From a virus: 64,000 bases of DNA. The notes beneath the pieces were generated by a model. The model had not been told where the DNA came from. It saw only the letters and a list, made by a program, of their open reading frames with translations, and searched no databases. A program made the position numbers and the translations under genes. Of this stretch, positions 23,905-57,908 are shown in pieces; position 1 is the stretch's first letter, and each line of letters begins with the position of its first letter. The DNA is taken from positions 1-64,000 of IMG/VR virus record IMGVR_UViG_3300000117_000009; one strand, 5' to 3'.

Positions 23905-23924
23905 AAATAAAAAATAAATTTGAT

Positions 23925-35499: not shown

Positions 35500-35528
35500 G
35501 TGTAAATTTCATATATTTGTCATATAAT
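35500..35528 (+). promoter_or_regulatory. Promoter GTGTAAA-N16-TATAAT upstream of thyX
   Basis: Exact motif in the intergenic gap, 24 nt before the ATG. Confidence 0.75.
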
Positions 35529-35552
35529 CTTAATATAAAAAAAAGGTTTTAA

Positions 35553-36266
35553 ATGACAAATATACACTATCTTTATGACGACAATATAGGTAAAGTTGAA
35601 TTGGTCCAACATATGGGCGAAGACATAACAGTTGTTAACTCTGCTAGAGTATCTTTTGGAGTGCAAAAAGACAATCTAGATATAAAAGATCAGAAACTAA
35701 TTAACTATTTAATTAAGCATAGACACACTTCTACGTTAGAACATAATATTGCAACATTTAGAATTAAAGTGCCGCTATTCGTAAGGTCACAACATCATAG
35801 ACACAGAACATGGTCTTATAATGAAATAAGTAGAAGATATACTGATTCTGATATTAAGTTTTATGAGCCCGTTAGATTTAGAACACAACATAAAAGTAAC
35901 AGACAGGCTTCAAATCTAGAAGACACAATTAATCCTTTAATTAACTATAAAACAGACTATAGCTCACAACTTTATAAAAAAACAGCTTCAGACGCTATTT
36001 GTGATCACCATAAAATCTCACTCAAGCTTTTTGATGACCTATTAGCTTCAGGTATTTGTAGAGAGCAAGCTAGAGGCATTTTACCACAGAATCTCTATAC
36101 AGAATATTATGCAACGGCTAATTTAAATAATATACTAAAGTTTATTAATTTAAGATCACATGAAGGTGCACAGTGGGAAATACAAAGACTATCTGATAGC
36201 ATGTTATCTATTGTAAAAGAACTTTGGCCTGTAACTGTTAATAGTTTTATTAATAACCATAAATAG
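35553..36266 (+). CDS. thyX: FAD-dependent thymidylate synthase (canonical)
   Basis: SARVSF, HRHTSTLEH, RHRTWSYNEISRRY, EQARGILP, LRSHEGAQWEI. Confidence 0.95.
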   Translation: MTNIHYLYDDNIGKVELVQHMGEDITVVNSARVSFGVQKDNLDIKDQKLINYLIKHRHTSTLEHNIATFRIKVPLFVRSQHHRHRTWSYNEISRRYTDSDIKFYEPVRFRTQHKSNRQASNLEDTINPLINYKTDYSSQLYKKTASDAICDHHKISLKLFDDLLASGICREQARGILPQNLYTEYYATANLNNILKFINLRSHEGAQWEIQRLSDSMLSIVKELWPVTVNSFINNHK

Positions 36267-36297
36267 ACAATAATTACTATGTTTAGAAGGAGTCAAC

Positions 36298-36660
36298 ATG
36301 AAAACAAAAATTCTCTTAGAAAGACATAATGATTTAGTTAATACTCTTATAAGATGTCGTATAAAAATTGAAGATCGAGAAGATCCAACCGTCTTAGATA
36401 TAATGACAGATATGAGAGCATTACCAGGAGTTGTAACTGTTAGACAGACAAGACCCATATCAGACACGGTTACGTCTTACGGACACAGACTAATAGAGCT
36501 TAATGTGTCTTATATTCCTGCTTTTATTGAAGATAGTGATCCTTTTATGACAATGATCAGATCTTTAAAAAAAGTTGAAGGTATTGATATGATTAAGGTA
36601 ATGGAACACGACGAACAATCAATTAATGTAAAAATACAGAAAACACCACTAATTATTTGA
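36298..36660 (+). CDS. Hypothetical protein (possible ACT/ferredoxin-like fold) with ILLE leader
   Basis: 120 aa; two helix-GV-strand units (MRALPGVVTV, LKKVEGIDMI). RBS AGGAG. Confidence 0.55.
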   Translation: MKTKILLERHNDLVNTLIRCRIKIEDREDPTVLDIMTDMRALPGVVTVRQTRPISDTVTSYGHRLIELNVSYIPAFIEDSDPFMTMIRSLKKVEGIDMIKVMEHDEQSINVKIQKTPLII

Positions 36661-36670
36661 AAGGAAAAAA

Positions 36671-36895
36671 ATGAATTTAAACGATACAACAATTGCGCAA
36701 ATTGTTAGACTGATACAGATGGCACTTCTTACTGGAACTGATATTGTTGATCACTTAAGAATGTTAATGCTAGAAGTAGATGAAAACCAAAAGCTAGTAA
36801 TTAATAGTGAGTACGAAAGAGTCTTTAATGAGTCACTTGAAAAAATGATGTCTAATATAAGTGAAAGAGAAAGTGAACCTGTTGCAAAAGACTAG
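36671..36895 (+). CDS. Hypothetical protein
   Basis: 74-aa ORF with RBS AAGGA. Confidence 0.6.
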   Translation: MNLNDTTIAQIVRLIQMALLTGTDIVDHLRMLMLEVDENQKLVINSEYERVFNESLEKMMSNISERESEPVAKD

Positions 36896-37268
36896 CTTAG
36901 ATAAACTTGATATTCTCTTTGATAAAAGAGAGACTTTTATGGAACTTATCAAGAAAAAATACCCAGACTCATACAAAGATTGGCCTTTAGACATTTCAGA
37001 GAAAAGTAGTCAAGTTTTACTTAGAGACACTGCGCTCAAAGGCGTCGAAGAAATGTTTGAAGCACTAGGACATTTAAAGAACTGGAAGCCTCATAGAGAT
37101 ACTGATATGCCTGAGATTGATAGAGAAGAATTCTTAGAAGAAATAGTTGATGCCTTTAATTACTTCTTTTCTTTAATAATTTTAATGGGTGTTGATGTTA
37201 ATGAATTTTATAATGCTTTTAATAAAAAAGACGAGATAATAAGAAATAGAATTAAAAGCAACTATTGA
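36861..37268 (+). CDS. All-alpha NTP pyrophosphatase (dimeric dUTPase / T4 gp56 dCTPase / MazG superfamily)
   Basis: EEMFEA...NWKPH...EEIVDAFNY...K..IIRNR..NY. Confidence 0.82.
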   Translation: MKEKVNLLQKTSLDKLDILFDKRETFMELIKKKYPDSYKDWPLDISEKSSQVLLRDTALKGVEEMFEALGHLKNWKPHRDTDMPEIDREEFLEEIVDAFNYFFSLIILMGVDVNEFYNAFNKKDEIIRNRIKSNY

Positions 37269-37277
37269 TTTATTTAC

Positions 37278-37306
37278 GTGTAAATATTAAATTTATAAAT
37301 TATAAT
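37278..37306 (+). promoter_or_regulatory. Promoter GTGTAAA-N16-TATAAT upstream of the ThyX paralog
   Basis: Exact motif, followed by RBS AAGGAG and a TTG start. Confidence 0.75.
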
Positions 37307-37334
37307 AAATTGGTAATAATAAAGGAGATAAATT

Positions 37335-38306
37335 TTGCCAATTAATAATGATCTTAAACAAGTCACTCTTCCAATGGAACTTAAGTTTGACCAAGTTCCT
37401 GTAACTAACTACATTAACAATCTAGAATCACTTAACATTGAACTAATTGATGGCCCTACTAGAGAACAAGCACAAAAAATTGCTTGGCACATGACAAAAG
37501 CAACATGGGCTGATACGCCTGCAGAAACTGCATTTGAAAACTCTACACCTGAAGAGGCTTCTCTTAATCTTCAAGATGTTCTTAATTTTAGAGCTCTTCC
37601 GACGCCGATGGAATGTTTAGGTTTTACTTTTAAAATTAGCGGAATTGATACACAAACAGTAACACATTTAATTAGACATAGAGCAGGTTCTTTTGCAGCA
37701 CAATGTACTGGCGATAGAGACCTTAGAAACGATAATGTTTTAGTTCCTGAGTCTGTTGAAAATTCAGACTTTCATCATCGATTTATTGAAGTTGCTGCTG
37801 CAGCAAAACAACTTTATTCTGATATGGTTGACTCACGTGCTGTATCACTTATGGACGCAAGAGTTATTCTACCTAAAGCATTAGAAACTTTTTATGTTGC
37901 AAGATTTAATCTTAAAGACTTAATTGGTTTTATTCGTCAACGTCAAGATGTACAAATTCAGCCAGAAGTAGACAATATTATTGCAACTCGTATTGCAAAA
38001 ATTGTTTGTACATCAATTCCTGAAGTTTCTACTTGCTTAAACTTTGAAAAACCAGACATGCATTATGTTCGAACTTTCCGTGTTGAATTACCTGACGGTA
38101 CATTTACATCTCGTGGAACAAATCTTTATTATCCAGAGCCTAAAAACGACTTGTTTGAGTTTAACGAAAAAGACGCTATTTATTCATGTCGTCGTGAAGA
38201 AATTAATGGAAACAAGAAAGGTGAAGAAAAAATCTTTACTAGAATGTGGAACGATGATGTTAAAGCTGTAAGACAAATTAGACAAAATTTAGACAGCGAG
38301 TTTTAA
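37335..38306 (+). CDS. Divergent ThyX-family flavoprotein
   Basis: TPMEC.GFTFKISG, HLIRHRAGSF, DARVILP, FIRQRQD..IQPE. Signature altered to RHRAGSFAAQCTGD; C-terminal extension. Confidence 0.8.
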   Translation: MPINNDLKQVTLPMELKFDQVPVTNYINNLESLNIELIDGPTREQAQKIAWHMTKATWADTPAETAFENSTPEEASLNLQDVLNFRALPTPMECLGFTFKISGIDTQTVTHLIRHRAGSFAAQCTGDRDLRNDNVLVPESVENSDFHHRFIEVAAAAKQLYSDMVDSRAVSLMDARVILPKALETFYVARFNLKDLIGFIRQRQDVQIQPEVDNIIATRIAKIVCTSIPEVSTCLNFEKPDMHYVRTFRVELPDGTFTSRGTNLYYPEPKNDLFEFNEKDAIYSCRREEINGNKKGEEKIFTRMWNDDVKAVRQIRQNLDSEF

Positions 38307-38385
38307 TATAAAACTGTTACAGAAAACAAACTTCTGTGTAAAACAATTAAAAACATGGTAATTTATTTATAAAAGGAACAATTTA

Positions 38386-38835
38386 ATGAAAAAGATTTAT
38401 CTTGCAAGTGGTTGGTTTAATCCAGTTCAAGCAGAAGAACTTACTAATTTAGAGAATATTTTTGATGCAAGATCTGATCATTTTGATCTTGCATCACCTA
38501 GAAGAATTTTTGTTTGTCCTCCTAATGCGCCAAAGGAAGTTCAGGATGAAACTTTTACTGGTAACTTGCACCATATTGAAACAGCAGACTTTTTACTAGT
38601 TAATACTCGCGACAAAGATATTGGCACAATTTGGGAGGCTGGCTATGCATTTGCATTTAAAAAGCCAATTATCTATTTTTGCGCAGGTCTTCCAGAAGGT
38701 GCTAAATTTAATCTTATGTTAGCAAGAAGTGGTATTAAGGTCTGCACATCTTTTGAGCAGCTTGAAGAATACTTGGATAGAGTAATATCTACAGGCGAGC
38801 TACCTAATGAACCTTATGCAGCCGCAATTGAATAA
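38386..38835 (+). CDS. Nucleoside 2-deoxyribosyltransferase / nucleotide N-hydrolase (NDT, DNPH1/MilB family)
   Basis: KIYLASGWF, IETADF, DIGTIWEAGYA (catalytic Glu), FNLML. Confidence 0.88.
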   Translation: MKKIYLASGWFNPVQAEELTNLENIFDARSDHFDLASPRRIFVCPPNAPKEVQDETFTGNLHHIETADFLLVNTRDKDIGTIWEAGYAFAFKKPIIYFCAGLPEGAKFNLMLARSGIKVCTSFEQLEEYLDRVISTGELPNEPYAAAIE

Positions 38836-39094
38836 AAAGTTTTGGTCTTTCAAAGACACAAAAACTCACAAAAGAGTAAAAGAAAAATACTTAATTAAGC
38901 AAGTAATAAGGCTTTTTATTTTTGACAAAAGTTTTTTATTGCAAGTAAAGTGCAAAGAAGACAGAAATAAATTACAATATGTAATACCTTATAAGTTTAT
39001 GTCAAACATATGGCCACGAGGTTTTTACTCCGGCATTTCAGACAGTGGCATTGTTCATTTTACTGACAGTGACATTATACGAGTAATAGGATAA
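38807..39094 (+). CDS. Hypothetical protein
   Basis: 95-aa ORF in operon. Confidence 0.5.
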   Translation: MNLMQPQLNKKFWSFKDTKTHKRVKEKYLIKQVIRLFIFDKSFLLQVKCKEDRNKLQYVIPYKFMSNIWPRGFYSGISDSGIVHFTDSDIIRVIG

Positions 39095-39099
39095 TATAA

Positions 39100-39315
39100 A
39101 TGGCAAAATATAAAAAAATATTTAGAACATACTTCTTTCATAACATGTTTGGACATCCAATTATGGAAATTCTAAACAGTATAGGCAAAAGAGACTGGGC
39201 AGATTATGTTCACGATTATACTTTACCTAAAGAAGGTATTGATAAAAAAAGTACAGCAAATACAAAAGATGACGCGCCAGAAGTAAATAGAACAATTCGA
39301 CCAACAAAGGATTAA
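39100..39315 (+). CDS. Hypothetical protein (His-rich HNMFGHP...VHD)
   Basis: 71-aa ORF with RBS AGGA. Confidence 0.55.
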   Translation: MAKYKKIFRTYFFHNMFGHPIMEILNSIGKRDWADYVHDYTLPKEGIDKKSTANTKDDAPEVNRTIRPTKD

Positions 39316-39319
39316 CGTT

Positions 39320-40138
39320 TTGCCAGAAGGACCTGAAGTAAAACTTTTTACTGAAAGACTTAATCAAAATTTTCGATATTACATGATTAAGTCTGTTGAA
39401 GTGCTAAGTGGTAGATACATTAAAAAGCCAATACAAAATCTAGAAGCACTAAACGGAAAAGAAATCAAAAGCTTTAATTGTAAAGGAAAGTTTATCTGGT
39501 TTGATTTAGACGATGTAATTGTTTTTAATACTTTAGGAATGACAGGCAGCTGGTCTAGACACAAAACAAAACATTCAAGAATAGCAATTAAATTTTACGA
39601 AAATGATACCGTATACTTTAACGATACAAGAAGCTTTGGTACGTTTCAGATTAAGTCTAGACAAGAACTTTCAAAAAAGTTAAAAAGCTTAGGCCCCGAT
39701 ATGTTGTCTAAGCCACCTGATACTGCAGAATTTATTCCTATATTTAGAAAGAAAAACAACAAAGACATATGCAGTGTTTTAATGAATCAAAACATTATTT
39801 CTGGAGTTGGCAATTATATCAAGGCTGAGTCTTTGTGGTATTCTAAAATTAATCCTCATGCTTTGATAAAAGATTTAACAGACGAAAATTTAGAAACTCT
39901 TAGGAAAGCAATATTGTTTGTTGTAAATAAGTCGTATCAAGAACAAGGTGCTTCAATAAAAGACTATTATACGTTTGATGAAGAAGAAGGCACAGCGACT
40001 GCTGGCTTTGTTGTGTACGGTAAGTCTAAAGATTACAACGGCCACAATGTAATAAAAGAGGAAACACTTGATAAGAGAGCAACTCATTGGGTTAAAGAAA
40101 GACAGATTTATGGAGTTAATCGACCTAAAACCAGGTGA
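39320..40138 (+). CDS. Fpg/Nei-family DNA glycosylase/AP lyase (zincless finger)
   Basis: N-terminal PEGPEV, KGKF, LGMTG, DTRSFG, LGPD, MNQ..ISGVGNY. Confidence 0.93.
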   Translation: MPEGPEVKLFTERLNQNFRYYMIKSVEVLSGRYIKKPIQNLEALNGKEIKSFNCKGKFIWFDLDDVIVFNTLGMTGSWSRHKTKHSRIAIKFYENDTVYFNDTRSFGTFQIKSRQELSKKLKSLGPDMLSKPPDTAEFIPIFRKKNNKDICSVLMNQNIISGVGNYIKAESLWYSKINPHALIKDLTDENLETLRKAILFVVNKSYQEQGASIKDYYTFDEEEGTATAGFVVYGKSKDYNGHNVIKEETLDKRATHWVKERQIYGVNRPKTR

Positions 40139-40301
40139 CTGCATTAAATACAATTTTTTGTATTCTAATGAAGAAGAGAAAATTGGATTAGTTACAAAAA
40201 TTAAAAAAGATAATAACTTTGCTTTCATGATCTATTTAGTTGACAATAAAGGTGCTATTGATGTTATACCGTTCAATATCATGGAGTATGAAAAAATATG
40301 A
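40110..40301 (+). CDS. Small hypothetical protein (KOW/SH3-like)
   Basis: MELIDLKPGDCI...IGLVTKI; ATG 40110 preferred to the ORF-track start. Confidence 0.5.
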   Translation: MELIDLKPGDCIKYNFLYSNEEEKIGLVTKIKKDNNFAFMIYLVDNKGAIDVIPFNIMEYEKI

Positions 40302-40846
40302 ATATATTTGTATTGGATAAATCTGCTAAAAAGGCAGCTGAGTATCATTGCGACAAGCATGTAGTCAAAATGATTCTTGAGTCTGCACAAATGAAGTCGA
40401 CTGCACACTGGCTGCACTTGTTGTGGAGCAATAATAAGAATTTAAAAGATTTTAAAAGAGTTAGAGACGCTAAATTGTGGTTGCTGGAAAATACTAATCC
40501 GGCACTTCATCCGCCATACTCAATGACACACGTTAGACATCCATGCACTATATGGGTTTCTTCAACAGTACAAAATTATATGTGGCATTATGATTTGCTG
40601 TTTTATCTTTGCAAAGAGTATACGAAAAGATATGGTAAAATACATAAAACAGCAAATTATTTAAGCTGGTTTAAAAACAATATCCCGCAAGGTATGAAAA
40701 GCAGTAGTCTGGAAGACTTTGCAATTTGCATGAGAGAAGACTTTAAAATAAACAAAGATGCTGTTGCTTCTTATAGAAACTATTACAAAAAAGATAAAGT
40801 AAGGTTTGCTAAGTGGAAACTAAACAATACACCTATATGGTTTTAA
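40298..40846 (+). CDS. Pyrimidine-dimer DNA glycosylase / endonuclease V-like family protein
   Basis: MNIFVLD, HCDKHVVKMILESAQM, THVRHPCTIWV, LCKEYTKRYGKIH, SYRNYY...AKW. Confidence 0.82.
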   Translation: MNIFVLDKSAKKAAEYHCDKHVVKMILESAQMKSTAHWLHLLWSNNKNLKDFKRVRDAKLWLLENTNPALHPPYSMTHVRHPCTIWVSSTVQNYMWHYDLLFYLCKEYTKRYGKIHKTANYLSWFKNNIPQGMKSSSLEDFAICMREDFKINKDAVASYRNYYKKDKVRFAKWKLNNTPIWF

Positions 40847-41095
40847 ATGTCTTATGTAAAAGTAAATCATAACTATTTTTTAGATGATGAAGATATAGGA
40901 AAACTTATAAGTGTAAAATTTATGAATTACTATTATAATACTAAAGAAGAAATAAAATACTCTTTAATATTATCTTTTAAATATAAAAAAAACATTAGGC
41001 CTACACATATGATAATTCTTAAACCTGACTGTAGTCTTAAAAAAATACGTTTAGACTATAGCAGTCTTAATATTGAAATAAACTTTTTAAGTTAA
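40847..41095 (+). CDS. Small hypothetical protein
   Basis: 82-aa ORF abutting the upstream stop. Confidence 0.5.
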   Translation: MSYVKVNHNYFLDDEDIGKLISVKFMNYYYNTKEEIKYSLILSFKYKKNIRPTHMIILKPDCSLKKIRLDYSSLNIEINFLS

Positions 41096-41104
41096 GGAAT
41101 TTAA

Positions 41105-41353
41105 ATGTCATCTTACTCAAAAGGATTAGAAGTTTCTGATCTCGTAACATTTATGCACAAAATTTTTAATAACCAATTTTCAGGCCCACGCACTGCGCTA
41201 GTCTTAAATAGAGAATATCTTTTTGAAAACAAAACAGAATATGGCATTAAAAAGTTTTTTGACTATAAAATGCTAGATACACAAAGTAACAAAGTATATA
41301 ACGTTAAAACAAGAGACATAAAAGTCGTTAAAATTTTAAAAGGAAGCAATTAA
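41105..41353 (+). CDS. Small hypothetical protein (KOW/SH3-like)
   Basis: LEVSDLVTF...TALVL; RBS AAGGA. Confidence 0.5.
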   Translation: MSSYSKGLEVSDLVTFMHKIFNNQFSGPRTALVLNREYLFENKTEYGIKKFFDYKMLDTQSNKVYNVKTRDIKVVKILKGSN

Positions 41354-42339
41354 TGAGAATAGGCATCACTGGTGAAAAAGGTTTTATTGCAACTAACTTG
41401 TCGAAAGAAATTATCAATCAAGGGCATGAATTTGTATCTATTGATAAGTCAGATTACGCTAAGACTCTGATGATATACACAGAAACTGATGAAGTCTGCG
41501 TATATTCTAATAATGCTGAATCCTGGATTCAATTGTTTAAAAGCCTAAATCTTGACTGCATTGTGCATAATGCAGCTGTTGTGGGAACTGATGTTGTTGC
41601 TTTAAATCCTGAGCATTCTATCAACACGAATATTTTAGGCACACAGACAATTGTTGAAGCTGCAAATAGTTGTGACATGCTAATTGTATACACAGGCACA
41701 ACAGTTATTTATGACACGTATAAGTATCAAGAATTTGATATTTTTGAAAATAGTGAAATATTCCCCAGGACAAATTATGCTGTCCAGAAATACGCTGGTG
41801 AGATGCTAGTAAGGAATAATGCAAAAGAGTGGCTTGTTACACGACCTTTATTTGCTTACGGCGGCATTGGTGATATGAACTCTTTAATTGCGAAGTCTTT
41901 ATTTGGCGTTAAAAATGGAATAGAAAACATTGACATATTTTTAGATCCACAAAAAATTAAAGATTATATGCATGTAGAGGACTTTTGTAATAGTGTTGTA
42001 AGGCTAATCGACTCTAGTGTTAGAAATGAAGACTTTAACATTACAGCTAGCAATCCACATAATACTTTAGAAATAGTTTCTATTATAGAAGAAGTTACCG
42101 GTTCAACCTTGGAAATTGTAGTTAAGTGGCACCCAGAAACAGACTATCTAGGAAATCATAGACTGTCTAATCAAAAGTTTGTTGACTTTATGGGCTTTGC
42201 AAATGTTCGAACACTCAGGGAAGGCATTAATCAGTCATGGCAGTCAATAAAAGATGCGAGTGAAAGTTACAATCCCTTAAAATACTTAGATCAAGCTAAG
42301 GCTCAAGATGTCGACTTAAAACAATTTTTTCCTAAGTAG
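41353..42339 (+). CDS. NAD-dependent epimerase/dehydratase (extended SDR, NDP-sugar)
   Basis: GITGEKGFIA, HNAAVVG, NILGT, YAVQK (YxxxK), KDYMHVEDF. Confidence 0.9.
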   Translation: MRIGITGEKGFIATNLSKEIINQGHEFVSIDKSDYAKTLMIYTETDEVCVYSNNAESWIQLFKSLNLDCIVHNAAVVGTDVVALNPEHSINTNILGTQTIVEAANSCDMLIVYTGTTVIYDTYKYQEFDIFENSEIFPRTNYAVQKYAGEMLVRNNAKEWLVTRPLFAYGGIGDMNSLIAKSLFGVKNGIENIDIFLDPQKIKDYMHVEDFCNSVVRLIDSSVRNEDFNITASNPHNTLEIVSIIEEVTGSTLEIVVKWHPETDYLGNHRLSNQKFVDFMGFANVRTLREGINQSWQSIKDASESYNPLKYLDQAKAQDVDLKQFFPK

Positions 42340-42362
42340 TTTACTCAGGGTTTCAACCCTAA

Positions 42363-42394
42363 GGCATACTTATTTAAAAAGGAGTAAGTATGCC
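42363..42394 (+). promoter_or_regulatory. RNA hairpin sequestering RBS and start codon of the endonuclease; contains candidate late promoter ATACTTA
   Basis: GGCATACTTA (42363-42372) is the exact reverse complement of TAAGTATGCC (42385-42394). AGGAG and ATG 42390 lie within the structure. Confidence 0.75.
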
Positions 42395-43160
42395 AAGAAC
42401 ATCAACCCAAGTGACATTAGTTTGTGAAACCTGCAACGCTGAATATAAAAAGCCTCAATCGAGAGCAAAGACTTCAAAGTATTGTTCAAAAGAATGTAAA
42501 AACAAAGCAAGCGCCAAATATGAAATTAAAAAGTGCGAAGTTTGTGGAATTGAGTTTAAGTCTAAAAGAGGAAAATCTTATTGTTCTAGAGAATGCTATT
42601 TGAAAAAGAACAAGCGCGAAAGAGTTACTCTTAAATGTGAATATTGCGGTATAGAGTATCAAAAGCCCAAAGGCAGAGAAACAAAGTATTGTAGTAAAGA
42701 CTGCCAGAATAAAGCGCAGAGTAGTGGCTTGCACGAAATACCTTCTAACGGTAGGATGGGATTTCGATATGATTTGCCTAATAACTACTTTTTTAAGTCT
42801 TCACTTGAAGCTGACTATGCTAGATGGTGTGAAGCAACAAACAAGTCATATGTATATGAGCACAAAACATTTACAGTCCAGTATGACGGAAGAGACAAGC
42901 AATACACACCTGACTTTTACCATCCTGATGAAAACAAATATGTAGAGCTTAAAGCAATACGTAGAGATAGAAAATTTAATTCAAATCTTTTAGCTGCAGA
43001 TCTTTTAAAACAACAGGGCGTCAACATCGATGTTTTGTTAATGCATGAGTTTTATACTCAGATTAAACAAAGTAATCACTATTGGAATATAGACAATATA
43101 GAAAATAAAAACTACAATGGAACAAAACATCTTATATACCTTAAAAAATCAGAAAAGTAA
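42390..43160 (+). CDS. Free-standing homing-type endonuclease: three Zn-ribbon repeats plus PD-(D/E)xK domain
   Basis: (CxxC...YCSxxC)x3, then KSSLEA, YTPDFY, YVELKA. Confidence 0.8.
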   Translation: MPRTSTQVTLVCETCNAEYKKPQSRAKTSKYCSKECKNKASAKYEIKKCEVCGIEFKSKRGKSYCSRECYLKKNKRERVTLKCEYCGIEYQKPKGRETKYCSKDCQNKAQSSGLHEIPSNGRMGFRYDLPNNYFFKSSLEADYARWCEATNKSYVYEHKTFTVQYDGRDKQYTPDFYHPDENKYVELKAIRRDRKFNSNLLAADLLKQQGVNIDVLLMHEFYTQIKQSNHYWNIDNIENKNYNGTKHLIYLKKSEK

Positions 43161-44328: not shown

Positions 44329-44548
44329 GCATGAAAAAGAAATAAGACTAGTTTCACAGTTAAAAGAAGGTGACATGATTGACATGTTTTATTATGGTAA
44401 AAAAATAAAGAATAACTGCTTAATTGTAGAGATTATTCAAGATCATTATTTTGTAAAAGGTTTAATCGTCTATTTAAACGGCACTTCTAGAGAAACAATA
44501 GATTTAGAAAACAATGAGGGGCTTTGGGTTGAAAAGTCTAAAACTTAG
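44318..44548 (+). CDS. Small hypothetical protein (KOW/SH3-like)
   Basis: LKEGDMIDM...CLIVEI. Confidence 0.5.
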   Translation: MSSKHEKEIRLVSQLKEGDMIDMFYYGKKIKNNCLIVEIIQDHYFVKGLIVYLNGTSRETIDLENNEGLWVEKSKT

Positions 44549-44559
44549 TATATTCCATG

Positions 44560-46743: not shown

Positions 46744-46789
46744 TATAAACCTTGTTTGTTTTAATAAATATTTTAATCACATCTAGATT

Positions 46790-49555: not shown

Positions 49556-49576
49556 TATAAACCTTGTTGTATCTTT

Positions 49577-49642
49577 TATGTGTAAATATAAATATAATGT
49601 TGATATAATAAATAAAAACAAGAAAGGTATATAATTTGTCTA
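49577..49642 (+). repeat. 66-bp direct repeat, copy 1 (duplicate of dnaE promoter/RBS/start)
   Basis: 64/66 identical to 50612-50677. Confidence 0.95.
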
Positions 49643-49683
49643 AATGTCTGATTATTATAAGATCACAGATTTAGAAAAAATAA

Positions 49684-50589: not shown

Positions 50590-50611
50590 TTGCAATCCTT
50601 TGTAATATTAA

Positions 50612-50677
50612 TATGTGTAAATATAAATATAATATTGTTATAATAAATAAAAACAAGAAAGGTATATAATTTGTCTA
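50612..50677 (+). repeat. 66-bp direct repeat, copy 2 (dnaE promoter GTGTAAA-N17-TATAAT, RBS GAAAGGT, TTG start)
   Basis: 64/66 identical to 49577-49642. Confidence 0.95.
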
Positions 50678-53600
50678 TTGATTTAATAACTCCACCAGAC
50701 AGGTTTGTTTCTCTTCATTCACACTCAACTTTTAGCACTTTTGATGGATTAGGATACCCATCAGATCATATAGACTTTGTTCTTTCTGAATCTCAAGGAA
50801 TGGATGCCTGGGGACTAACAGATCATGGCAATGGTAACGGTCTTGCTCATGCACATTCTCATGCTGTTAAAATGCAAAAGGCAGGCAAAAACTTTCGTCA
50901 AGTTTACGGTGTAGAGTTTTATTTTGTCCCCTCACTAGATCAATGGACTGATGATTATGCTGCACATCGTCAAGCTATTAAAGACGCAAAGACAGCTGCT
51001 GCTGCTGAAAAGAAAGGCAAAGAAAATATTGTCATTGACGCTGATGATGAAAGTGGCGGACTAGTTATAGAGGACGAAGATGAATCTAAAAAAATCGACA
51101 TTCTCAAAGACGAGTGGAAACGCCGATACCACTTAGTCATCACAGCAAGAAACAGAAAAGGCCTTAATAATCTATTTACACTTGTAAAGAAGTCGTATAA
51201 AGACGGATTCTATAGATACCCACGTGTTGACTTTAAAATGATTAAAGAACATGGAGAAGGCCTTCATATATCAACTGCATGTTTAGGCGGCATCTACAGC
51301 AACCGTATTCTTCGCGGTGTTGCACATGACAAATCACGTGACGAAATTCAAAAAGATCTACAAAACCTATCAGACAGATTTACAGACGCTGTTGGTATTG
51401 AAAACTTTAAATTAGAACTACAATTCAATAAGCTTAATAAACAGCATGTTGTTAATGACTACCTCATAGAACATCACAAACTAACTGGCATTCCTCTTAT
51501 TTCAACAGCAGATTCTCACTACCCGAGTAATGATAAGTGGCAAGCGAGAGAGTTGTATAAGAAGCTTGGATGGTTAGGCAAGAAGGATGGCATGACGCTA
51601 CCTGCTTTTGAAGATCTTAAGTGTGAGTTGTATCCTAAGAATGCTCAACAAATGTGGGATGAATTCTTAGAAGGCTATAAAGAACACGACTTCTACAAAG
51701 GGAATGAGCAACTTGTTAAAGAGTCGATAGAAAGAACACACGACATTGTCTGGAATGACTTTGAAGATACTTGGATAGATGTAAGTGCTAAACTCCCAAC
51801 AATATCAATACCTAACAAGACACCTTTCAAACACCTGTCAGATCTAGTTAAGAATGCTTTGGTTAGCGAAGGGTTGCATACTAATAAAGAGTATGTAGAT
51901 AGAGCTAAGTATGAATTGTCTGACATTAAGTATCTTGGGCACGAAGCTTACTTCATTACAATGTATGAGATCTTTAAAAAAGCAGAAACAAAGACATTAT
52001 TTGGGCCTGCGCGCGGGAGTGGCGGAGGCTCGTTAGTTAACTACTTATTAGGCATTACACAGCTTGACCCTATTCCTTATAACTTGCTTTGGAGTAGATT
52101 TTTAGGTAGGCATCGTGTTTCTTGGCCTGATATTGACACAGACGCTGGTGATCGAGATGAACTCATCAATGCAGCAAAGGAATTGTATGGCGATGATGCT
52201 GTTATTCCAGTATCAAACTTTAATACGCTTAAACTTAAATCACTTGTAAAAGACATTGCAAAGTTTTATGATATTCCGTTTGACGAAGTAAACAAAGTAA
52301 CTGGGCCTCTTCAAGATCAAGTTATGCAAAAAGCAATGGACAAGAATCAAGAAAAGTCTGTATTCGTTCTTAAACATGAAGACTGTATGAAATACTCACC
52401 AGAGTATAATGAATTTATGACAGAATATCCTGAGGTCGCTGAACATGTTGAGACTTTGTTTATGCAGAATAGAGCTATCGGTAGACACGCAGGCGGTGTA
52501 ATAATAGCTGATGCTGATTCTCTTGCAGAGTCAATGCCAATTGTTGGTGTTCGTGGAGAACTACAAACTCCCTGGACAGAAGGCATGAACTTTAGAAATC
52601 TTGAAGATAATGGTTTTCTTAAGTTTGATTTCTTAGGCTTAACATTGCTTAAAGACGTAGAAAACTGCATCTATAGGATTCTCAAAAAGCAAGGAAATAA
52701 TAATCCTACATTCACAGATGCAAGAGCATTCTTTGATAAACATTTAAACTGTAGGTTTGTTAAACAAAATGATCCTAAAGTTTGGGAACATGTATACAAA
52801 GACGGAAAGTTTTGTGGAATATTTCAATTTACAGCGCCTGGTGCTAGAAACTTTGCAAAGGAAGCAGAACCTGATTCTATTGAAGAACTAGCAGCTTTAA
52901 CAGCTATATACAGACCCGGTCCACTTAAAGCAAATGTGCATAAGAAGTATGTTAAAGCAAAAAGAAACGCTTCAGAAATTAAGTATGATCACCCTATTAT
53001 TGAAAAGATATTAGGGCCTACGTTTAACTACGTAGTTTTTCAAGAGCAGTTTATGCTACTAGCACAGGAGCTAAGTGGATTTGACCCAGGCGAAGCTGAT
53101 AAGCTTAGAAAAACTCTGGTTAAGAAGTCACTAGATACACTTCATTCTAAAGGTTCAGAAAAAGCAATTGCTAGAGAAAAGTTTATCAAGGGTGCTAAAG
53201 AATTAAACGATGTTCCGGAGTCAGTATCATCTAAGTTATGGGAAGACATAGAAAATTTTGCTGTTTACGGCTTTAACAAGTCTCACGCAGTTGCATATGC
53301 TATTGGTTCATATTACGCAGCTTGGTTGCATACGCATCACGAGACTGAGTGGCTGGCTGCAATATTACAGTCTGAAAATGGTAATCCTAAAGGCATGTCA
53401 AAAGCCATTTCAGAGATTAAGTCGTTTGGGTATGAGATTGCTGCAATAGATATAAATCACTCTGAAGCAGAATGGGAATATTCTGAAGTGTTGAAAGCTT
53501 TTGTTCCGCCACTAACATCGCTCAAAGGAGTAGGAGATAAAGCTGTTGAAGAAGTATTTGCGAATAGACCATACAAAAATTTAAATACTCTATTTTATGA

Positions 53601-54246
53601 TGCAGAAGGAGTATGGAAACATTCCAAGTTAAACAAGACAGCTTTTTCTTCGCTAGCGAAGATGGAAGCATTTAAGTCTCTTGACGAGTTTAAAACTGAC
53701 GAATTGGATAATCACAAGCAACTCCATGATTTAATACTTGATAACTATACTACTCTCAAGAAAGGTTATTGGGGAATGACAAAAACTGCAGTAAAAAGAG
53801 CAAAAAAGAATCAAGAAGAAATTGTTCCAATTGTTGAAGATTTATTGACAAAGTATCGAGTTGTTTCTGACTGGAATAGATCAGAAAAAATTAGGAATTA
53901 TTTTGATCTCAGCAATGATGCAAGTGACGACCTCCTGTTTCCACCAAGTTTAATTAAAAAGTTAAACGACAAGCAAATCAACAGCGTCTTTGATATACCT
54001 GCAGGTGAAAGAGGAATTGGCTGGTTTACAGTGACAGAAGTTATTCATAAGACAACAAAAAACAACAAGGCGTTTATGCGATGGAAGTGTGTTGACTCAG
54101 ATAATCGTAGCGGATGGTTAAGAGTTTGGGGTAGTGTTGAAGATGGTGTTGAGTTTAGTACATGGCTTGCTGACGTAAAGAATGATGCTGGATGGGGTAT
54201 GTCATCTACACTTGCTAAACTTAAAAAGATTAATGCGTTTGATTAA
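50671..54246 (+). CDS. dnaE: DNA polymerase III alpha subunit (family C)
   Basis: PHP motifs LHSHS..DG, TDHG, ADSHY; GPARGSGGGSLV, PDIDTD, GRHAGG, KFDFLGL, YRPGP, YGFNKSHA. Confidence 0.97.
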   Translation: MSIDLITPPDRFVSLHSHSTFSTFDGLGYPSDHIDFVLSESQGMDAWGLTDHGNGNGLAHAHSHAVKMQKAGKNFRQVYGVEFYFVPSLDQWTDDYAAHRQAIKDAKTAAAAEKKGKENIVIDADDESGGLVIEDEDESKKIDILKDEWKRRYHLVITARNRKGLNNLFTLVKKSYKDGFYRYPRVDFKMIKEHGEGLHISTACLGGIYSNRILRGVAHDKSRDEIQKDLQNLSDRFTDAVGIENFKLELQFNKLNKQHVVNDYLIEHHKLTGIPLISTADSHYPSNDKWQARELYKKLGWLGKKDGMTLPAFEDLKCELYPKNAQQMWDEFLEGYKEHDFYKGNEQLVKESIERTHDIVWNDFEDTWIDVSAKLPTISIPNKTPFKHLSDLVKNALVSEGLHTNKEYVDRAKYELSDIKYLGHEAYFITMYEIFKKAETKTLFGPARGSGGGSLVNYLLGITQLDPIPYNLLWSRFLGRHRVSWPDIDTDAGDRDELINAAKELYGDDAVIPVSNFNTLKLKSLVKDIAKFYDIPFDEVNKVTGPLQDQVMQKAMDKNQEKSVFVLKHEDCMKYSPEYNEFMTEYPEVAEHVETLFMQNRAIGRHAGGVIIADADSLAESMPIVGVRGELQTPWTEGMNFRNLEDNGFLKFDFLGLTLLKDVENCIYRILKKQGNNNPTFTDARAFFDKHLNCRFVKQNDPKVWEHVYKDGKFCGIFQFTAPGARNFAKEAEPDSIEELAALTAIYRPGPLKANVHKKYVKAKRNASEIKYDHPIIEKILGPTFNYVVFQEQFMLLAQELSGFDPGEADKLRKTLVKKSLDTLHSKGSEKAIAREKFIKGAKELNDVPESVSSKLWEDIENFAVYGFNKSHAVAYAIGSYYAAWLHTHHETEWLAAILQSENGNPKGMSKAISEIKSFGYEIAAIDINHSEAEWEYSEVLKAFVPPLTSLKGVGDKAVEEVFANRPYKNLNTLFYDAEGVWKHSKLNKTAFSSLAKMEAFKSLDEFKTDELDNHKQLHDLILDNYTTLKKGYWGMTKTAVKRAKKNQEEIVPIVEDLLTKYRVVSDWNRSEKIRNYFDLSNDASDDLLFPPSLIKKLNDKQINSVFDIPAGERGIGWFTVTEVIHKTTKNNKAFMRWKCVDSDNRSGWLRVWGSVEDGVEFSTWLADVKNDAGWGMSSTLAKLKKINAFD

Positions 54247-54258
54247 ACGTATTAGATG

Positions 54259-54570
54259 CTAGAATGACATCATTTCTATAGGTGTTACTCCAAGCTTTAA
54301 TAGCTTTTCTTTATACATCGATTTAAATTTTAATTTCATCTCATGTCTTAGTTTATTGTCGTTTATTTCGTCTGCTTTTTGCATATTCAACCTGTACATT
54401 GCTAGTAAAGTTTCTTTATCTGCAGTTTCACTATTATTAGGTCCAGGCCCTAAAGCTTGAATAGGATCTGAACCCATGTGTCCATGACCACCTGACAGGT
54501 CGTCGCTATAGTGAGATTCTTTTATAGCACTTCTAATGATTGAGCGTAAACGTCTTTCTGTGATTTTCAT
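54259..54570 (-). CDS. Small protein with KITERRLRSIIRSAIKE leader (candidate internal head protein)
   Basis: 103 aa. RBS region TTTTAGGAGAAAACAAA is identical to that of the tail tube gene. Confidence 0.65.
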   Translation of the reverse strand: MKITERRLRSIIRSAIKESHYSDDLSGGHGHMGSDPIQALGPGPNNSETADKETLLAMYRLNMQKADEINDNKLRHEMKLKFKSMYKEKLLKLGVTPIEMMSF

Positions 54571-54652
54571 ATTTGTTTTCTCCTAAAATATGTTTTTAAA
54601 TATGATAAAATTTTATATTTTTATTTATAATATAAAATAAAAAAGGTTTTAA

Positions 54653-55543
54653 ATGAGATTTTTCAATATTAATATCGAAGGCCCTGATTGCAGTGGCAAA
54701 ACAACTTTATACAGTCAGCTGCACAAAGAAACTAATTTTAAATATAACATTCAAGACAGAAGTTGTATGTCTATGTTTGTTTATGCAAAGATGTATGGAA
54801 GAGAAGATGCATCACTTTGGTTTGATAAAATTTTAGACGACCTTAAGCGACTAGACACACTTTACATACTTCTTTTACCTTCAGAAAAAACAATTCTTAA
54901 TAGACTACAAAAAAGAGGCGATGATTTTCAAGATAAAGACAGCATTTTAAAAGTAAGAAGTTATTTTAGAAATATTGCAAAAATGGGTTTTGGTTCCTAT
55001 CCTAACGTTTTAGTTTTAGAAGAAGATGATTTAGAAACAAATATAAACAAAACATTACAGTTTATAAACGCTCTAAACGAAATGCCTGGTCAAGAACTAA
55101 TCAAGTCTTTAGTGTTTAGCAGTGGTAGAAATGAATTGATTGATGTACAATGTAAAGAAGAAGTTAATAGAAATCATTTGGATTTAACTGTATTAGACTT
55201 TCCTCAAGAAAAAGAGTATTACGAAAAAATTGAGTTTGAGTTTTTTAATAAAATTTTTAGAGAGTTTGTTGGACTAAACGAACGCAATCAAGCACAAAAG
55301 CATGATAGCAGAAGATTTATCTATACTAGTGATAGTTGTATATCAATGATTCACGTTTTATGGCGCCAAAATAAATTAAATGTATTGGCAACCCTAAGAT
55401 CTTCAAACGTATCAAAAACTTTATGGGCTGATTATGAATTTCTTAAGATACTTAGTGTTAAAACTGCCAAAGAAATGTCTTTACCTGAAGATTGTGTTAT
55501 AAAACTTACAGTTGATATTCGATCGGCACATATAGTACCTTAG
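54653..55543 (+). CDS. dNMP kinase fused to a minimal thymidylate-synthase-fold (dCMP hydroxymethylase-like) domain
   Basis: N-terminus: IEGPDCSGKTT, IQDRS, RLQKRGDD. C-terminus: DSRR, SCISMIH, LRSSNV..LWADY, SAHI. Confidence 0.75.
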   Translation: MRFFNINIEGPDCSGKTTLYSQLHKETNFKYNIQDRSCMSMFVYAKMYGREDASLWFDKILDDLKRLDTLYILLLPSEKTILNRLQKRGDDFQDKDSILKVRSYFRNIAKMGFGSYPNVLVLEEDDLETNINKTLQFINALNEMPGQELIKSLVFSSGRNELIDVQCKEEVNRNHLDLTVLDFPQEKEYYEKIEFEFFNKIFREFVGLNERNQAQKHDSRRFIYTSDSCISMIHVLWRQNKLNVLATLRSSNVSKTLWADYEFLKILSVKTAKEMSLPEDCVIKLTVDIRSAHIVP

Positions 55544-55552
55544 AGAATTTTT

Positions 55553-56125
55553 ATGAACCCACAATTTATAATTTATACTGGCCCGATGTTTGGGTCAAAA
55601 ACAACAAGATTAATGTCTGATATCGATCGATCCTTATATAAAGGTCGTAAAGTAATAGCTTTCAAAGCTAAAAAAGACAATAGATATACAAAAGAAACAA
55701 TTAGTACACATACTGGTGCAACATATCCAGCATTTTGCATAAACCATGCTGAAGAGATATTGTGTTATGTAAACGAAGACATACATAATTCAAACACAAT
55801 AGTCGCTGTTGACGAAGCTTTTATGATTCAGGATATTGACTCTGTTTTGATTTCTTTATATCGTAAAGGTGTTAATATAATTGTGTCATCAATTCAATTA
55901 GACGCAAACGAGATACCTTTTGAGAACATAAAAAACATGATGCCTTGGGCGACAAAAATCGAAATTTGTCCAGCTGTCTGTACGATCTGTGACCAGGATG
56001 CATATTTTACAGAAGCTATGTTTGATATTAACAGTGCAACACAAGAAGAAAGAATTGGCTCGTTTGGAATGTATGAGCCAAGATGTGCAACCCACTACAC
56101 TAGTTTTAGAGAGACTAAAGATTGA
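55553..56125 (+). CDS. tdk: Thymidine kinase (type II)
   Basis: YTGPMFGSKTT, DNRY, VAVDEA, AVCTIC, YEPRCATH. Confidence 0.9.
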   Translation: MNPQFIIYTGPMFGSKTTRLMSDIDRSLYKGRKVIAFKAKKDNRYTKETISTHTGATYPAFCINHAEEILCYVNEDIHNSNTIVAVDEAFMIQDIDSVLISLYRKGVNIIVSSIQLDANEIPFENIKNMMPWATKIEICPAVCTICDQDAYFTEAMFDINSATQEERIGSFGMYEPRCATHYTSFRETKD

Positions 56126-57015
56126 AAAAAATTAATGTACCAATTATTCCGAAAGATTTAGGCACAAGGTTCAAGTCGTCAGATATCTGGTTTGTTTGTC
56201 AAACAAACAAATTTGTAAAATCAATTAGACCGCCAAAGTATTCTAGCTTATATAACGGTAAAGCTCATCAAAGATTTGAAGAAGCTTATAGAAAGCATAT
56301 TAAAAATTATCCTGACAATATGTCATTTGTAAAAGCAAGCCTCTTTAATGCGACTAACATTGTAACGCCTAAGCAGATCTTGTTAAATCAAGGTTACACT
56401 TACTATTTTAAACTTTTACCTGAGCAAATCGAAAAATGCCTATTTTCAGTCACTATAGATGGTGAAAATGCTTTAGTAAAAGGTATTCAGGGTTTTGCAG
56501 GAGTATATAAGGTATGGAATGAGAGAAAAGACACATGTACTGAAGTAACATCTTATAGTGACAAGCCAAGTGATAATATTGAAGTTATTATTCCATTTAA
56601 AGTTAAACCTCAATATTACATACCAGAAGTCAAAAAAAGGACTTTTTATCACGGAAGTTTACAAAGATTTAGTTCTTTAAACAAGTTTTCTTACGTAACA
56701 CCTTACAAAGAAGACGCGATTAAATTTGCAATACCTTGGTCATCAGACGAGTTGCTTATAAAAGACAGAGAAATGTCAGATTTAGGTCGGCCGCCTAAGT
56801 GCCTTTACTTTAAAAGAGATATAGAAATAGAAGATAGTAAAGTTTATTTATACGCTATAAAAGGTATTGACACAATTAGCTCTGGAACAAATACAGGAAA
56901 AATCTTTCCTTGGAATAGAATAACATTAAAAGAAGCGTCTGAAGAAGATAAAAGTCTTAAACTTGAAAAGAAGATTATGTCTTGGAAAAAAGTGTTATCA
57001 GCTATTAACATTTAA
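56122..57015 (+). CDS. Two-domain protein with C-terminal ADP-ribosyltransferase-like (Arr-type) domain
   Basis: TFYHGS...L...YVTPYKEDAIKFA...VYLYAI. Confidence 0.5.
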   Translation: MKKINVPIIPKDLGTRFKSSDIWFVCQTNKFVKSIRPPKYSSLYNGKAHQRFEEAYRKHIKNYPDNMSFVKASLFNATNIVTPKQILLNQGYTYYFKLLPEQIEKCLFSVTIDGENALVKGIQGFAGVYKVWNERKDTCTEVTSYSDKPSDNIEVIIPFKVKPQYYIPEVKKRTFYHGSLQRFSSLNKFSYVTPYKEDAIKFAIPWSSDELLIKDREMSDLGRPPKCLYFKRDIEIEDSKVYLYAIKGIDTISSGTNTGKIFPWNRITLKEASEEDKSLKLEKKIMSWKKVLSAINI

Positions 57016-57469
57016 CAGGCGTATATTCTATATTACTGTCATGTTTTTTTAGATCAATTCTAACTTGCTCTAACGTATCTTCCCTGTCATCCCAAAACTT
57101 AACGTAAGTTATATTATCATTTGCACATATTTCATCTAATATTACATGAGACTTATAAATTGGTGCTCTTTCTTTTCTGTAAGCAGACTTAAAGTAACAT
57201 TGATCAAAATCGTTTAAAGACATATTGTTTTGATTTAAAAGCTCTTCTGTTGACATTATATATTCAGATTTATTTGTTCTTGCTGTGCAAAGTATTACTC
57301 TTGTTTGAGAATTACCTAGAGAGTTTTGAAGTTCAGCAACAATATTTTCTATCCAATCTTCTTTTTTATGATCGTATAACGTCATATCAAAGTCATAAAT
57401 ATGTAATGTATTTATTGGTTCTTTTTTTATAATATACTTTATGTAGTTTTCCAGTAGTAAATTAGACAT
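57005..57469 (-). CDS. HAD-superfamily phosphatase (PNKP / RNA-repair-type)
   Basis: IYDFDMTL (DxD), LCTAR, YKS, FWDDR. ATG 57469 with RBS GAGG; LLENYIK leader. Confidence 0.78.
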   Translation of the reverse strand: MSNLLLENYIKYIIKKEPINTLHIYDFDMTLYDHKKEDWIENIVAELQNSLGNSQTRVILCTARTNKSEYIMSTEELLNQNNMSLNDFDQCYFKSAYRKERAPIYKSHVILDEICANDNITYVKFWDDREDTLEQVRIDLKKHDSNIEYTPVKC

Positions 57470-57488
57470 AAAACCTCGGAGTAATTTA

Positions 57489-57908
57489 ATGGTAGATATA
57501 AATAGGCCTTCATGGGACAAAATTTGGATGCAAATGGCAGAAACTATTGCTCAACGTAGCCATCACCCAACTTTTAAAGTAGGTGCACTTATAGTAACGT
57601 CAGATAATACGCAAGTTCTTTCCTTAGGATATAATGGTCGCGCAGCAGGAATGTCAAACGTACCTCAATCTGATGAACCTGGGTGTAGTGGTTTATTGCA
57701 TGCTGAAATTAATGCGTTGCTTAAACTTGACTATAATAATCCTAAAGATAAGGTAATGTACATTACACTAAGCCCTTGCGAAAATTGTGCAATGGCAATT
57801 ATAAATAGCGGCATAAAAAAAGTAGTGTACAAAGATGAGTATAGAGACATGTCAGGTGTAGATTTATTGAGAAAAGCAAATATTACTGTTAATAATATAT
57901 ATTTATAG
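57489..57908 (+). CDS. dCMP deaminase
   Basis: KVGA, GYNG, HAEINA, TLSPCENC, SGIKKVVY...YR. Confidence 0.92.
   Translation: MVDINRPSWDKIWMQMAETIAQRSHHPTFKVGALIVTSDNTQVLSLGYNGRAAGMSNVPQSDEPGCSGLLHAEINALLKLDYNNPKDKVMYITLSPCENCAMAIINSGIKKVVYKDEYRDMSGVDLLRKANITVNNIYL

Follow-up and report, generated by a model that had tools for sequence, protein, structure and literature searches.

IMG/VR virus record IMGVR_UViG_3300000117_000009 is 107.3 kb long (CheckV completeness 42%, GC content about 31%) and comes from an uncultured marine jumbo phage. Its first 64,000 nucleotides, referred to below as the window, contain between positions 35,500 and 57,908 a block of genes in which a second set of pyrimidine nucleotide enzymes stands beside the ordinary genes for dTTP supply. 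An earlier reading of the window, hereafter the original prediction, proposed that this second set removes dCTP and replaces it with a C5-modified, possibly sugar-derived, deoxycytidine nucleotide for incorporation by the phage polymerase. The genes of this block, their relatives in other phages and the pathway that they may encode are the subject of the present analysis. Related records are 211–284 kb long, one of them with terminal repeats, and contigs of near-identical DNA occur in 20 DNA datasets from 8 marine metagenome studies, with no RNA dataset among them.

Coordinates written in the form n..m refer to the + strand. Ordinary dTTP supply is represented by a trimeric dUTPase (28909..29394; PF00692, 3e-13), a canonical ThyX (ThyX1; 35553..36266; PF02511, 2.8e-46) with the full RHRxxSxNExSxRY motif and matches of 1e-37 to 1e-39 to solved ThyX structures, a thymidine kinase (TK; 55553..56125; PF00265, 3.8e-32) and a dCMP deaminase (57489..57908; PF00383, 7.8e-25). 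The second set comprises an all-alpha pyrophosphatase, a ThyX paralog (ThyX2), a nucleoside 2-deoxyribosyltransferase-family protein (NDT), an NDP-sugar epimerase/dehydratase-family enzyme and a kinase fused to a domain of the thymidylate synthase (TS) fold. Pfam, profile and structure matches bear out the folds that had been ascribed to all nine genes, four of ordinary supply and five of the second set, and the pyrophosphatase, ThyX2 and NDT genes are indeed adjacent (36861–38835). The block surrounds a DnaE-type replicative polymerase gene (50671..54246; in tblastn, about 28% identical to DnaE-like polymerases of phages across 85% of its length), which is syntenic in related loci. An NCBIfam search gave no name to any of the odd proteins.

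The fusion gene (54653–55543) encodes two domains that are modelled with confidence (AlphaFold2 (AF2), predicted local distance difference test (pLDDT) 93.6). Residues 1 to about 147 (54653..55093) form a YorR/thymidylate-kinase-like kinase, with a YorR profile match at 1e-9 and a structural match to YorR 3kb2 (VIA Z 14.4, root-mean-square deviation 2.8 over 139 residues). Residues of about 150–296 (55100..55543) form a minimal TS fold, here called the mini-TS, with the motifs SRR, SCIS, RSSNV, ADY and SAH. The first two Foldseek matches of the mini-TS are structures 9iqu (the HY126 dCMP hydroxylase AfhB with dCMP, E 2e-6) and 9iqc (a second HY126 dCMP-hydroxylase entry, with dCMP and FAD), with E. 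coli TS and T4 dCMP hydroxymethylase coming next, and 136 residues can be aligned to the CMP hydroxymethylase MilA with a Z of 12.3. At the profile level, the mini-TS aligns to residues 147–198 of T4 gp42, the dCMP hydroxymethylase (dCH; E 0.011), and by hhalign to RB69 gp48, starting at gp48 residue 132 (E 2.5e-4).

The residues conserved across 18 mini-TS relatives are SRR, the Cys of SCIS, RS, an Asp and SAH. The catalytic Cys (E. coli C146) corresponds to C229 in SCIS, is kept in 17 of the 18 relatives and aligns to the Cys of T4 gp42 and RB69 gp48. The position of N177 is occupied by Asp (N177D; D260), the dCMP-type residue named in the original prediction, which is invariant in the 18 relatives and is also found in the stand-alone mini-TS of Geobacillus phage GR1 and of the IMG/VR loci L107 and L108. 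At the position of D169, the window protein, its subgroup, GR1 and L108 carry Asn (D169N) within RSSNV, and the Asp-for-N177 follows at a distance of eight residues, the identical spacing of E. coli TS, T4 gp42 and RB69 gp48. A near-invariant Asp, D227, may occupy the position of L143, lying two and not three residues before the Cys, in a loop of uncertain register. A search for shorter mini-TS homologues returned only fragments.

TS homologues that combine N177D with the diagnostic D169N have recently been described as flavin- and O2-dependent 5-hydroxy-dCMP (5hodCMP) synthases, and both substitutions are present in every 5hodCMP synthase tested (Lee et al., PMC13326640). The synthases are those of phages RB69, DLP3, HY126 and RL38JI, among them RB69 gp48, DLP3 gp80 and HY126 AfhB, and in these phages 5-hydroxycytosine is then arabinosylated or hexosylated on the DNA (PMC13326640). 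These phages also encode a gp56 dCTPase, a TMPK/YorR-like kinase beside the synthase, NDP-sugar genes and glycosyltransferases, and the kinase next to the DLP3 synthase, gp78, has YorR 3kb2 as its structural match (PMC13326640). Judged by its fold and residues, the mini-TS most likely works like a 5hodCMP synthase in the window phage. We do not file it as a member of that family, because it has only about 150 residues, is missed by Pfam and belongs to a group in which position 169 is variable.

The pyrophosphatase (36861..37268) is an all-alpha, MazG/gp56-like dNTP pyrophosphatase and a candidate dCTPase. It matches phrog_12184 (1.4e-16) and, weakly, dUTPase_2 and PRA-PH, and its acidic motifs VEEMFEA and EEIVDAFNY are conserved. 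By hhalign it aligns end to end with the RB69 gp56 dCTPase (probability 83%, E 9e-6, 125 columns), up to a shared C-terminal GY, which shows homology with gp56 and agrees with the dCTPase-like character first proposed for it. Nearly all of the related loci that extend far enough have a gene for a small conserved protein (36671..36895 in the window) directly 5' of the pyrophosphatase gene; it stands there in 65 related loci, including the most distant subgroup. Searches of Pfam, phrog and NCBIfam gave no family match for this small protein.

ThyX2 (37335..38306; PF02511, 2e-19) has a ThyX core with an altered nucleotide loop, with about 45 extra residues N-terminal to the core and about 90 C-terminal to it. 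Its AF2 model (pLDDT 96.1) has its best Foldseek matches in the ThyX of Mycobacterium tuberculosis, C. glutamicum and T. maritima and in PolB (1e-11 to 1e-9; PolB 4p5b, 3.6e-10). In T. maritima numbering, taken from a HMMER alignment to T. maritima ThyX, the half-motif RHRxxS (RHRAGS) and the equivalents of R147 and R174 are kept, SxRY (S88, R90, Y91) is replaced by C-T-G-D-R, a Leu stands at the folate-stacking H53, and Q75 and E86 are also replaced. The altered motif residues are, to our knowledge, conserved in the characterised ThyX enzymes. Across 16 relatives, with a mean column identity of 72%, the loop RHRAGSFAAQCTGDR that takes their place does not vary, and ThyX2 thus appears to be under purifying selection.

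ThyX2 also belongs to a larger family. In a profile search it comprised at least 66 clusters (50% identity) at E ≤ 1e-30, a number that rose to 196 with the looser limit of E ≤ 1e-10, and the family shares the pattern T-H-L-[IL]-R-H-R-x-x-S-F-S-A-Q-C-[TS]-G-D-[RK], in which the motif change is invariant. One member, P0017, has an N-terminal GT-A-like domain fused to it (Pfam 1.6e-4; Atlas 0.97), and it was not found when searched for in viral contigs and genome contigs. The genes of two other members, P0031 and P0135, are invaded by an HNH homing endonuclease or intein (Hint domains), as is typical of essential, highly conserved phage genes. A literature search gave no relevant paper on ThyX homologues that take part in the modification of phage DNA.

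The NDT gene (38386..38835) matches PF05014 (3.8e-12, 46.8 bits against a cut-off of 28.8) and phrog_7995 (1.6e-27). The catalytic-type Glu E84 in GT.WE.G and the FNLM motif are invariant, and the motifs AS/GGWF, FNLM and GT.WE.G are ones that we take to resemble those of true deoxyribosyltransferases. The protein is a candidate transferase or N-glycosidase, and the motifs alone do not decide between the two. It is followed by a gene for an Fpg/Nei-family DNA glycosylase (39320..40138; PF01149, 1e-19; PF06831, 1.5e-14), linked to the block by association only, which has an N-terminal PEGPEV with the catalytic Pro and Glu and lacks the Cys4 zinc finger. Nei-type enzymes excise 5-hydroxycytosine and 5-hydroxyuracil, so that a gene of this type beside those of a candidate 5-hydroxy-pyrimidine pathway may be more than coincidence.

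The sugar-nucleotide gene (41353..42339; PF01370, 1e-27) encodes an extended short-chain dehydrogenase/reductase (SDR) of the NDP-sugar epimerase/dehydratase family with a Rossmann fold. The solved structures closest to it are those of dTDP-glucose dehydratase, UDP-glucose epimerase and UDP-glucuronate decarboxylase; it retains YxxxK, with Y and K aligning to those of 2hun, and the Asp-Glu pair of 4,6-dehydratases is absent. The distribution of the SDR follows the state of the mini-TS. In two relatives, G001 (a complete genome) and G002, the Cys, the Arg-Ser pair and the His are gone from the mini-TS, and no PF01370 gene was found anywhere in either record. The L060 lineage has a kinase-only gene with the TK directly after it, and the SDR is absent at the syntenic site in L059 and L060. 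All five checked records with an intact mini-TS (G003, G005, G011, G015 and G016) have an SDR, and a distant subgroup has a GalE-like SDR directly 3' of the fusion gene. Since the SDR is lost alongside mini-TS function, it is tied to mini-TS activity, as would be expected if a C5 hydroxyl were glycosylated, and the proposal of a possibly sugar-derived modification is strengthened. No arabinose-5-phosphate or nucleotidyltransferase genes were found in the open reading frames (ORFs) checked of the record. GT-B genes are present in relatives G002, G003 and G004. In G003, a complete relative of 284 kb, the region of 124–143 kb (L113, L116, L122, L125, L128, L129) holds two to three GT-B genes together with five SDR epimerase/dehydratase genes, a sugar cluster far larger than anything in the window's record.

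Linkage of these genes was found at two levels. Within the jumbo phage family, the order small protein, pyrophosphatase, ThyX2, NDT, (Fpg), SDR and HNH, followed at a distance by DnaE, fusion, TK and dCMP deaminase, is found again in 80 related viral loci, in which ThyX2 identity goes as low as 58%, and NDT lies beside ThyX2 in 79 of 81 loci. Outside it, six contexts from unrelated small phages were examined, namely Geobacillus phage GR1 (OK896991) and the IMG/VR loci L107–L111. All six have NDT within a few kb of ThyX2. A YfbR-like HD 5'-deoxynucleotidase follows NDT in L107, L108 and L109 (Pfam), an annotated HD-domain gene stands there in GR1, and a same-sized ORF occupies the position in L110 and L111; no YfbR-like HD gene was found in the 107-kb record of the window phage. 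A small kinase homologous to the N-terminal domain of the fusion is present in four of the six contexts, a stand-alone mini-TS of about 150 residues in three (GR1, L107 and L108), and a pyrophosphatase homologue in three, weakly so in two of these. A dCMP deaminase lies near in L108 and L111. L109–L111 have ThyX2 and NDT (HD shown for L109), with no mini-TS detectable in the fetched DNA.

Separate kinase and mini-TS genes flank ThyX2 in GR1, L107 and L108, with NDT, HD and pyrophosphatase alongside; all are therefore parts of one module, and the fusion of the window joins two genes of this module. In GR1, the mini-TS start overlaps the ThyX2 stop (12969/12969), and the two genes are also adjacent in L108. 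The co-occurrence of the genes as a conserved functional set is thus seen both in the 80 related loci and in the adjacency of module members in unrelated phages. The region 7158–13424 of GR1 encodes NDT, thioredoxin, HD, a 464-aa glycosyltransferase, the small kinase, RNase H, an NAD(P)H nitroreductase, ThyX2 and the unannotated mini-TS, and the region 23306–24538 encodes an amidoligase and a gamma-glutamylcyclotransferase; no other thymidylate synthase occurs in GR1. From its gene content, GR1 is a strong candidate for an undescribed DNA hypermodification.

A promoter-like site (GTGTAAAT...TATAAT; 37278..37306, +, by motif match) precedes ThyX2. The motif GTGTAAAW-N12-24-TAWAAT has six matches in the window against 0.25 expected, so that the shared promoter of the original prediction is real, with variants of it before the NDT and fusion genes. 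It does not discriminate, as it also precedes ThyX1, DnaE and a gp32-like gene, and it is the phage's general replication-gene type and not a marker of this pathway.

From the observed folds, conserved residues, gene linkage and phyletic patterns we infer the substrates and products of the enzymes, as well as the modification of the DNA itself. The block likely encodes a modified-pyrimidine pathway, the cytosine branch of which would be a miniaturised, kinase-fused variant of the 5-hydroxycytosine route. A normal DNA pyrimidine is probably replaced, most likely cytosine by this route. The complete proposal, in which a pre-replicative pathway with two branches supplies a non-canonical pyrimidine nucleotide to the phage DnaE, has in our estimate about an even chance of being correct. 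In the cytosine branch, which is moderately supported, the gp56-like pyrophosphatase would lower dCTP to dCMP, the Cys of the mini-TS would attack C6 of dCMP so that C5 is modified, and the product would most likely be 5-hydroxy-dCMP, made in the manner of RB69 gp48 and HY126 AfhB. The YorR-like kinase domain of the fusion would phosphorylate this product directly, and after incorporation the hydroxyl would probably be glycosylated with an SDR-prepared sugar by a transferase encoded outside the 107-kb fragment.

The second branch, that of ThyX2 and NDT, is conserved and widespread. It would rest on a flavoenzyme that lacks the SxRY half and the folate-stacking His and has as partners the NDT-family protein and, in other phages, the YfbR-like 5'-deoxynucleotidase. 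ThyX2 might hydroxylate or hydroxymethylate dUMP or dCMP with the help of flavin, it might make dTMP as a divergent synthase, or it might supply flavin to the mini-TS. As a guess, we favour the first of these, a flavin-dependent hydroxylation or hydroxymethylation at C5 of a pyrimidine deoxynucleotide, with NDT, the HD enzyme and the pyrophosphatase perhaps clearing the canonical or deaminated counterpart. A more far-reaching form of this guess, possible and on balance doubtful, is that ThyX2 founds a new class of flavin enzymes performing non-methylating C5 modification (hydroxylation or hydroxymethylation) and that, with NDT and HD, it forms a ThyX-based route to non-canonical DNA bases, widespread in phages from siphovirus size (40 kb) up to that of the marine jumbo phages. 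The jumbo family would have this route beside a miniaturised 5-hydroxy-dCMP synthase, and two modified pyrimidines could result.

Several observations weigh against a cytosine-directed pathway in the form proposed. The mini-TS has about 150 residues compared with 217–238 in the proven 5hodCMP synthases, and most of the N-terminal half of TS, the complete core of which (about 217–240 residues) holds the flavin in those enzymes, is gone; the Pfam TS model PF00303 has no match anywhere in the record, mini-TS included. D169N is not general in the mini-TS family, as the distant jumbo subgroup has Asp or Glu at position 169 (RS[ST]D or RSSE). Because this position varies, the lineages may make different products, and the published diagnostic may not be applicable here. 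The window phage also encodes a canonical ThyX, a TK and a dCMP deaminase. No glycosyltransferase had been visible in the window, and none was found in the ORFs checked of the 107-kb record (42% complete), nor by tblastn with the glycosyltransferases of the relatives, and G002 keeps its GT-B genes despite a decayed mini-TS, which misfits a strict coupling. The synteny within the jumbo family is inherited and is not independent evidence. ThyX2 retains the R147 and R174 equivalents as uracil-type contacts (R174 being the uracil-O4 Arg, with the phosphate Arg kept), and it is well conserved where the mini-TS is dead or absent (G001, G002 and L060, in which NDT and the pyrophosphatase are well conserved too) or was not found (L109–L111), from which it follows that ThyX2 has its own function. 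Two complete genomes, GR1 and G008, have no TS-family enzyme other than ThyX2. The part of the original prediction that had ThyX2 and NDT act on cytosine is not supported by these observations.

The uracil-type contacts of ThyX2 instead suit a modification directed at uracil or thymine, a reading that we consider unlikely. ThyX2 would then make 5-hydroxymethyl- or 5-hydroxy-dUMP, as a flavin analogue of the SPO1-type dUMP hydroxymethylase. The pyrophosphatase would be a dTTPase or dUTPase and the HD enzyme a dTMP nucleotidase, the kinase would act on the product, the dCMP deaminase would feed in dUMP, and the mini-TS would be accessory or separate. Such a route would account for genomes in which ThyX2 is the only TS-family gene, for the NDT–HD–ThyX2 core without mini-TS in L109–L111 and for the dCMP deaminase near the module in L108 and L111. 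Glycosyltransferase, amidoligase and gamma-glutamylcyclotransferase-type enzymes accompany thymidine hypermodification, and GR1 encodes these as well. However, the canonical ThyX and TK of the window phage would be pointless if thymine were replaced, the mini-TS has the cytosine-type Asp, and the closest characterised relative of the pyrophosphatase is a dCTPase, though gp56 also hydrolyses dUTP. Moreover, no ThyX shown to yield a hydroxymethyl or hydroxy product was found in the literature search.

The same genes could also serve ordinary nucleotide economy with no modified base at all, an explanation to which we assign a low probability. ThyX2 would make dTMP as a divergent synthase, salvage would be the task of NDT, HD, TK and the kinase, the pyrophosphatase would be a MazG-type house-cleaning enzyme, the SDR would prepare host-surface or virion sugars, and the mini-TS would bind dCMP or dUMP or have a regulatory role. 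Phages with unmodified DNA have members of all of these families, the window phage has a rich nucleotide toolkit (a ribonucleotide reductase and the GuaC-PurA-PurB genes described below), its genome assembles from standard shotgun metagenomes of eight studies, and the ORFs checked of the record hold no glycosyltransferase. It would remain to be explained, however, why the replacement loop of ThyX2 is itself invariant, why 17 of 18 relatives retain the catalytic Cys of the mini-TS, alongside a specificity pair equal to that of a proven modification enzyme, and why mini-TS function and the SDR are lost together; a second dTMP synthase beside a canonical one would also be redundant. Less probable still, in our view, is a two-component hydroxylase, in which ThyX2 hands reduced flavin to a pared-down mini-TS that has lost its own cofactor half, the two together making 5-hydroxy-dCMP. 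ThyX enzymes reduce FAD with NAD(P)H, and the adjacency of the two genes in GR1, where they overlap, and in L108, as well as the NAD(P)H nitroreductase gene directly before ThyX2 in GR1, would fit such a division of labour. The proven 5hodCMP synthases likewise require reduced flavin (PMC13326640). Against it, ThyX2 is highly conserved in G001 and G002 despite the decayed active site of the mini-TS and is conserved in L109–L111, where no mini-TS was found, and in the window the ThyX2 and fusion genes are 16 kb apart. A complex prediction for ThyX2 and the mini-TS domain scored 0.00, which speaks neither for nor against binding.

Other genes of the record concern purine supply, replication and redox chemistry. 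Outside the window, at 95441–98916 of the record (L105:11441–14916), genes of the GMP reductase/IMPDH family, adenylosuccinate synthetase and adenylosuccinate lyase stand in a row, a GuaC-PurA-PurB trio that would turn GMP into AMP via IMP and would suit a genome of 31% GC. A 2-aminoadenine (Z) genome, with the pyrophosphatase as MazZ, was considered and rejected, as the gene between GuaC and PurB (96502–97728) is a true PurA and not a PurZ, matching cellular PurA at 1e-62 versus PurZ at only 1e-9 to 1e-12. The window phage also encodes the ribonucleotide reductase mentioned above. Within the window, positions 20304–21377 encode a short 357-aa fragment of a family-A DNA polymerase (PF00476, 9e-12), although the main polymerase is of the DnaE type, and positions 61768–62484 encode an Fe/Mn superoxide dismutase C-terminal domain (PF02777, 7e-20), which may matter if flavin/O2 chemistry yields reactive oxygen. 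Among 50,697 phage records, megablast found none that matched the block, so that no cultured phage matched at the DNA level, and tblastn of the fusion protein against phages gave none either; the window phage thus appears to have no cultured close relative. One run, X5, contains 60% of the words of the block and is filed under a named organism and not as a metagenome; if it comes from a host culture or a single-cell genome, as is possible, it could provide a lead to the host.

If the proposed pathway is correct, 5-hydroxycytosine chemistry extends from T4-like and Rhizobium phages to abundant uncultured marine giant phages, in a stripped-down, kinase-fused form of the synthase that escapes Pfam-based screens. 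It would also give a conserved ThyX-like family, with at least 66 clusters at 50% identity, its first link to the modification of DNA bases. Modified bases decide phage escape from restriction and CRISPR, and they bias sequencing-based surveys of marine viromes. A cultured handle on these questions is Geobacillus phage GR1 (host G. stearothermophilus ATCC 10149), which carries the ThyX2, NDT, HD, kinase and mini-TS genes.

The original prediction did not recognise this enzyme combination from described pathways. A kinase and a TS-fold enzyme with N177D and D169N, together with a dCTPase and NDP-sugar genes, is nevertheless the 5-hydroxycytosine layout published in 2025–2026 (PMC13326640), and the combination is in part a variant of that pathway. 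The window shares with it a TS fold with the Cys, N177D and D169N, a YorR-like kinase, a gp56-homologous pyrophosphatase and an SDR linked by phyletic pattern. It differs in that its TS part is a domain fused to the kinase, whereas the known synthases stand alone, in the variation of its family at position 169 (N, D or E), and in the inclusion of a ThyX paralog and NDT, which the known pathway lacks. The T4 system of gp56 (dCTPase), gp42 (dCMP hydroxymethylase) and gp1 (dNMP kinase) follows the same plan, that is, to clear dCTP, to modify dCMP at C5 by a TS-fold enzyme with Asp at N177 and to phosphorylate the product. Unlike T4 gp42, the window enzyme has Asn and not Asp at position 169 and is without the folate-binding part, and its kinase is YorR/TMPK-like and not gp1-like. 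ThyX2 has the ThyX fold, RHRxxS and the R147/R174 equivalents in common with ThyX and with the UMP/dUMP methylase PolB, and is set apart from both by C-T-G-D-R in place of SxRY, by the replaced H53, Q75 and E86, by its extensions and by its NDT-family partner. Finally, the pairing of a TS-fold C5-modifying enzyme with an NDT-fold protein in one module recalls MilA/MilB, consistent with the structural match of MilA to the mini-TS, and DNPH1/Rcl; in contrast to the deoxynucleotide pathway proposed here, MilA, a TS-fold CMP hydroxymethylase, and MilB, an NDT-fold nucleotide N-glycosidase, act on ribonucleotides in antibiotic synthesis.

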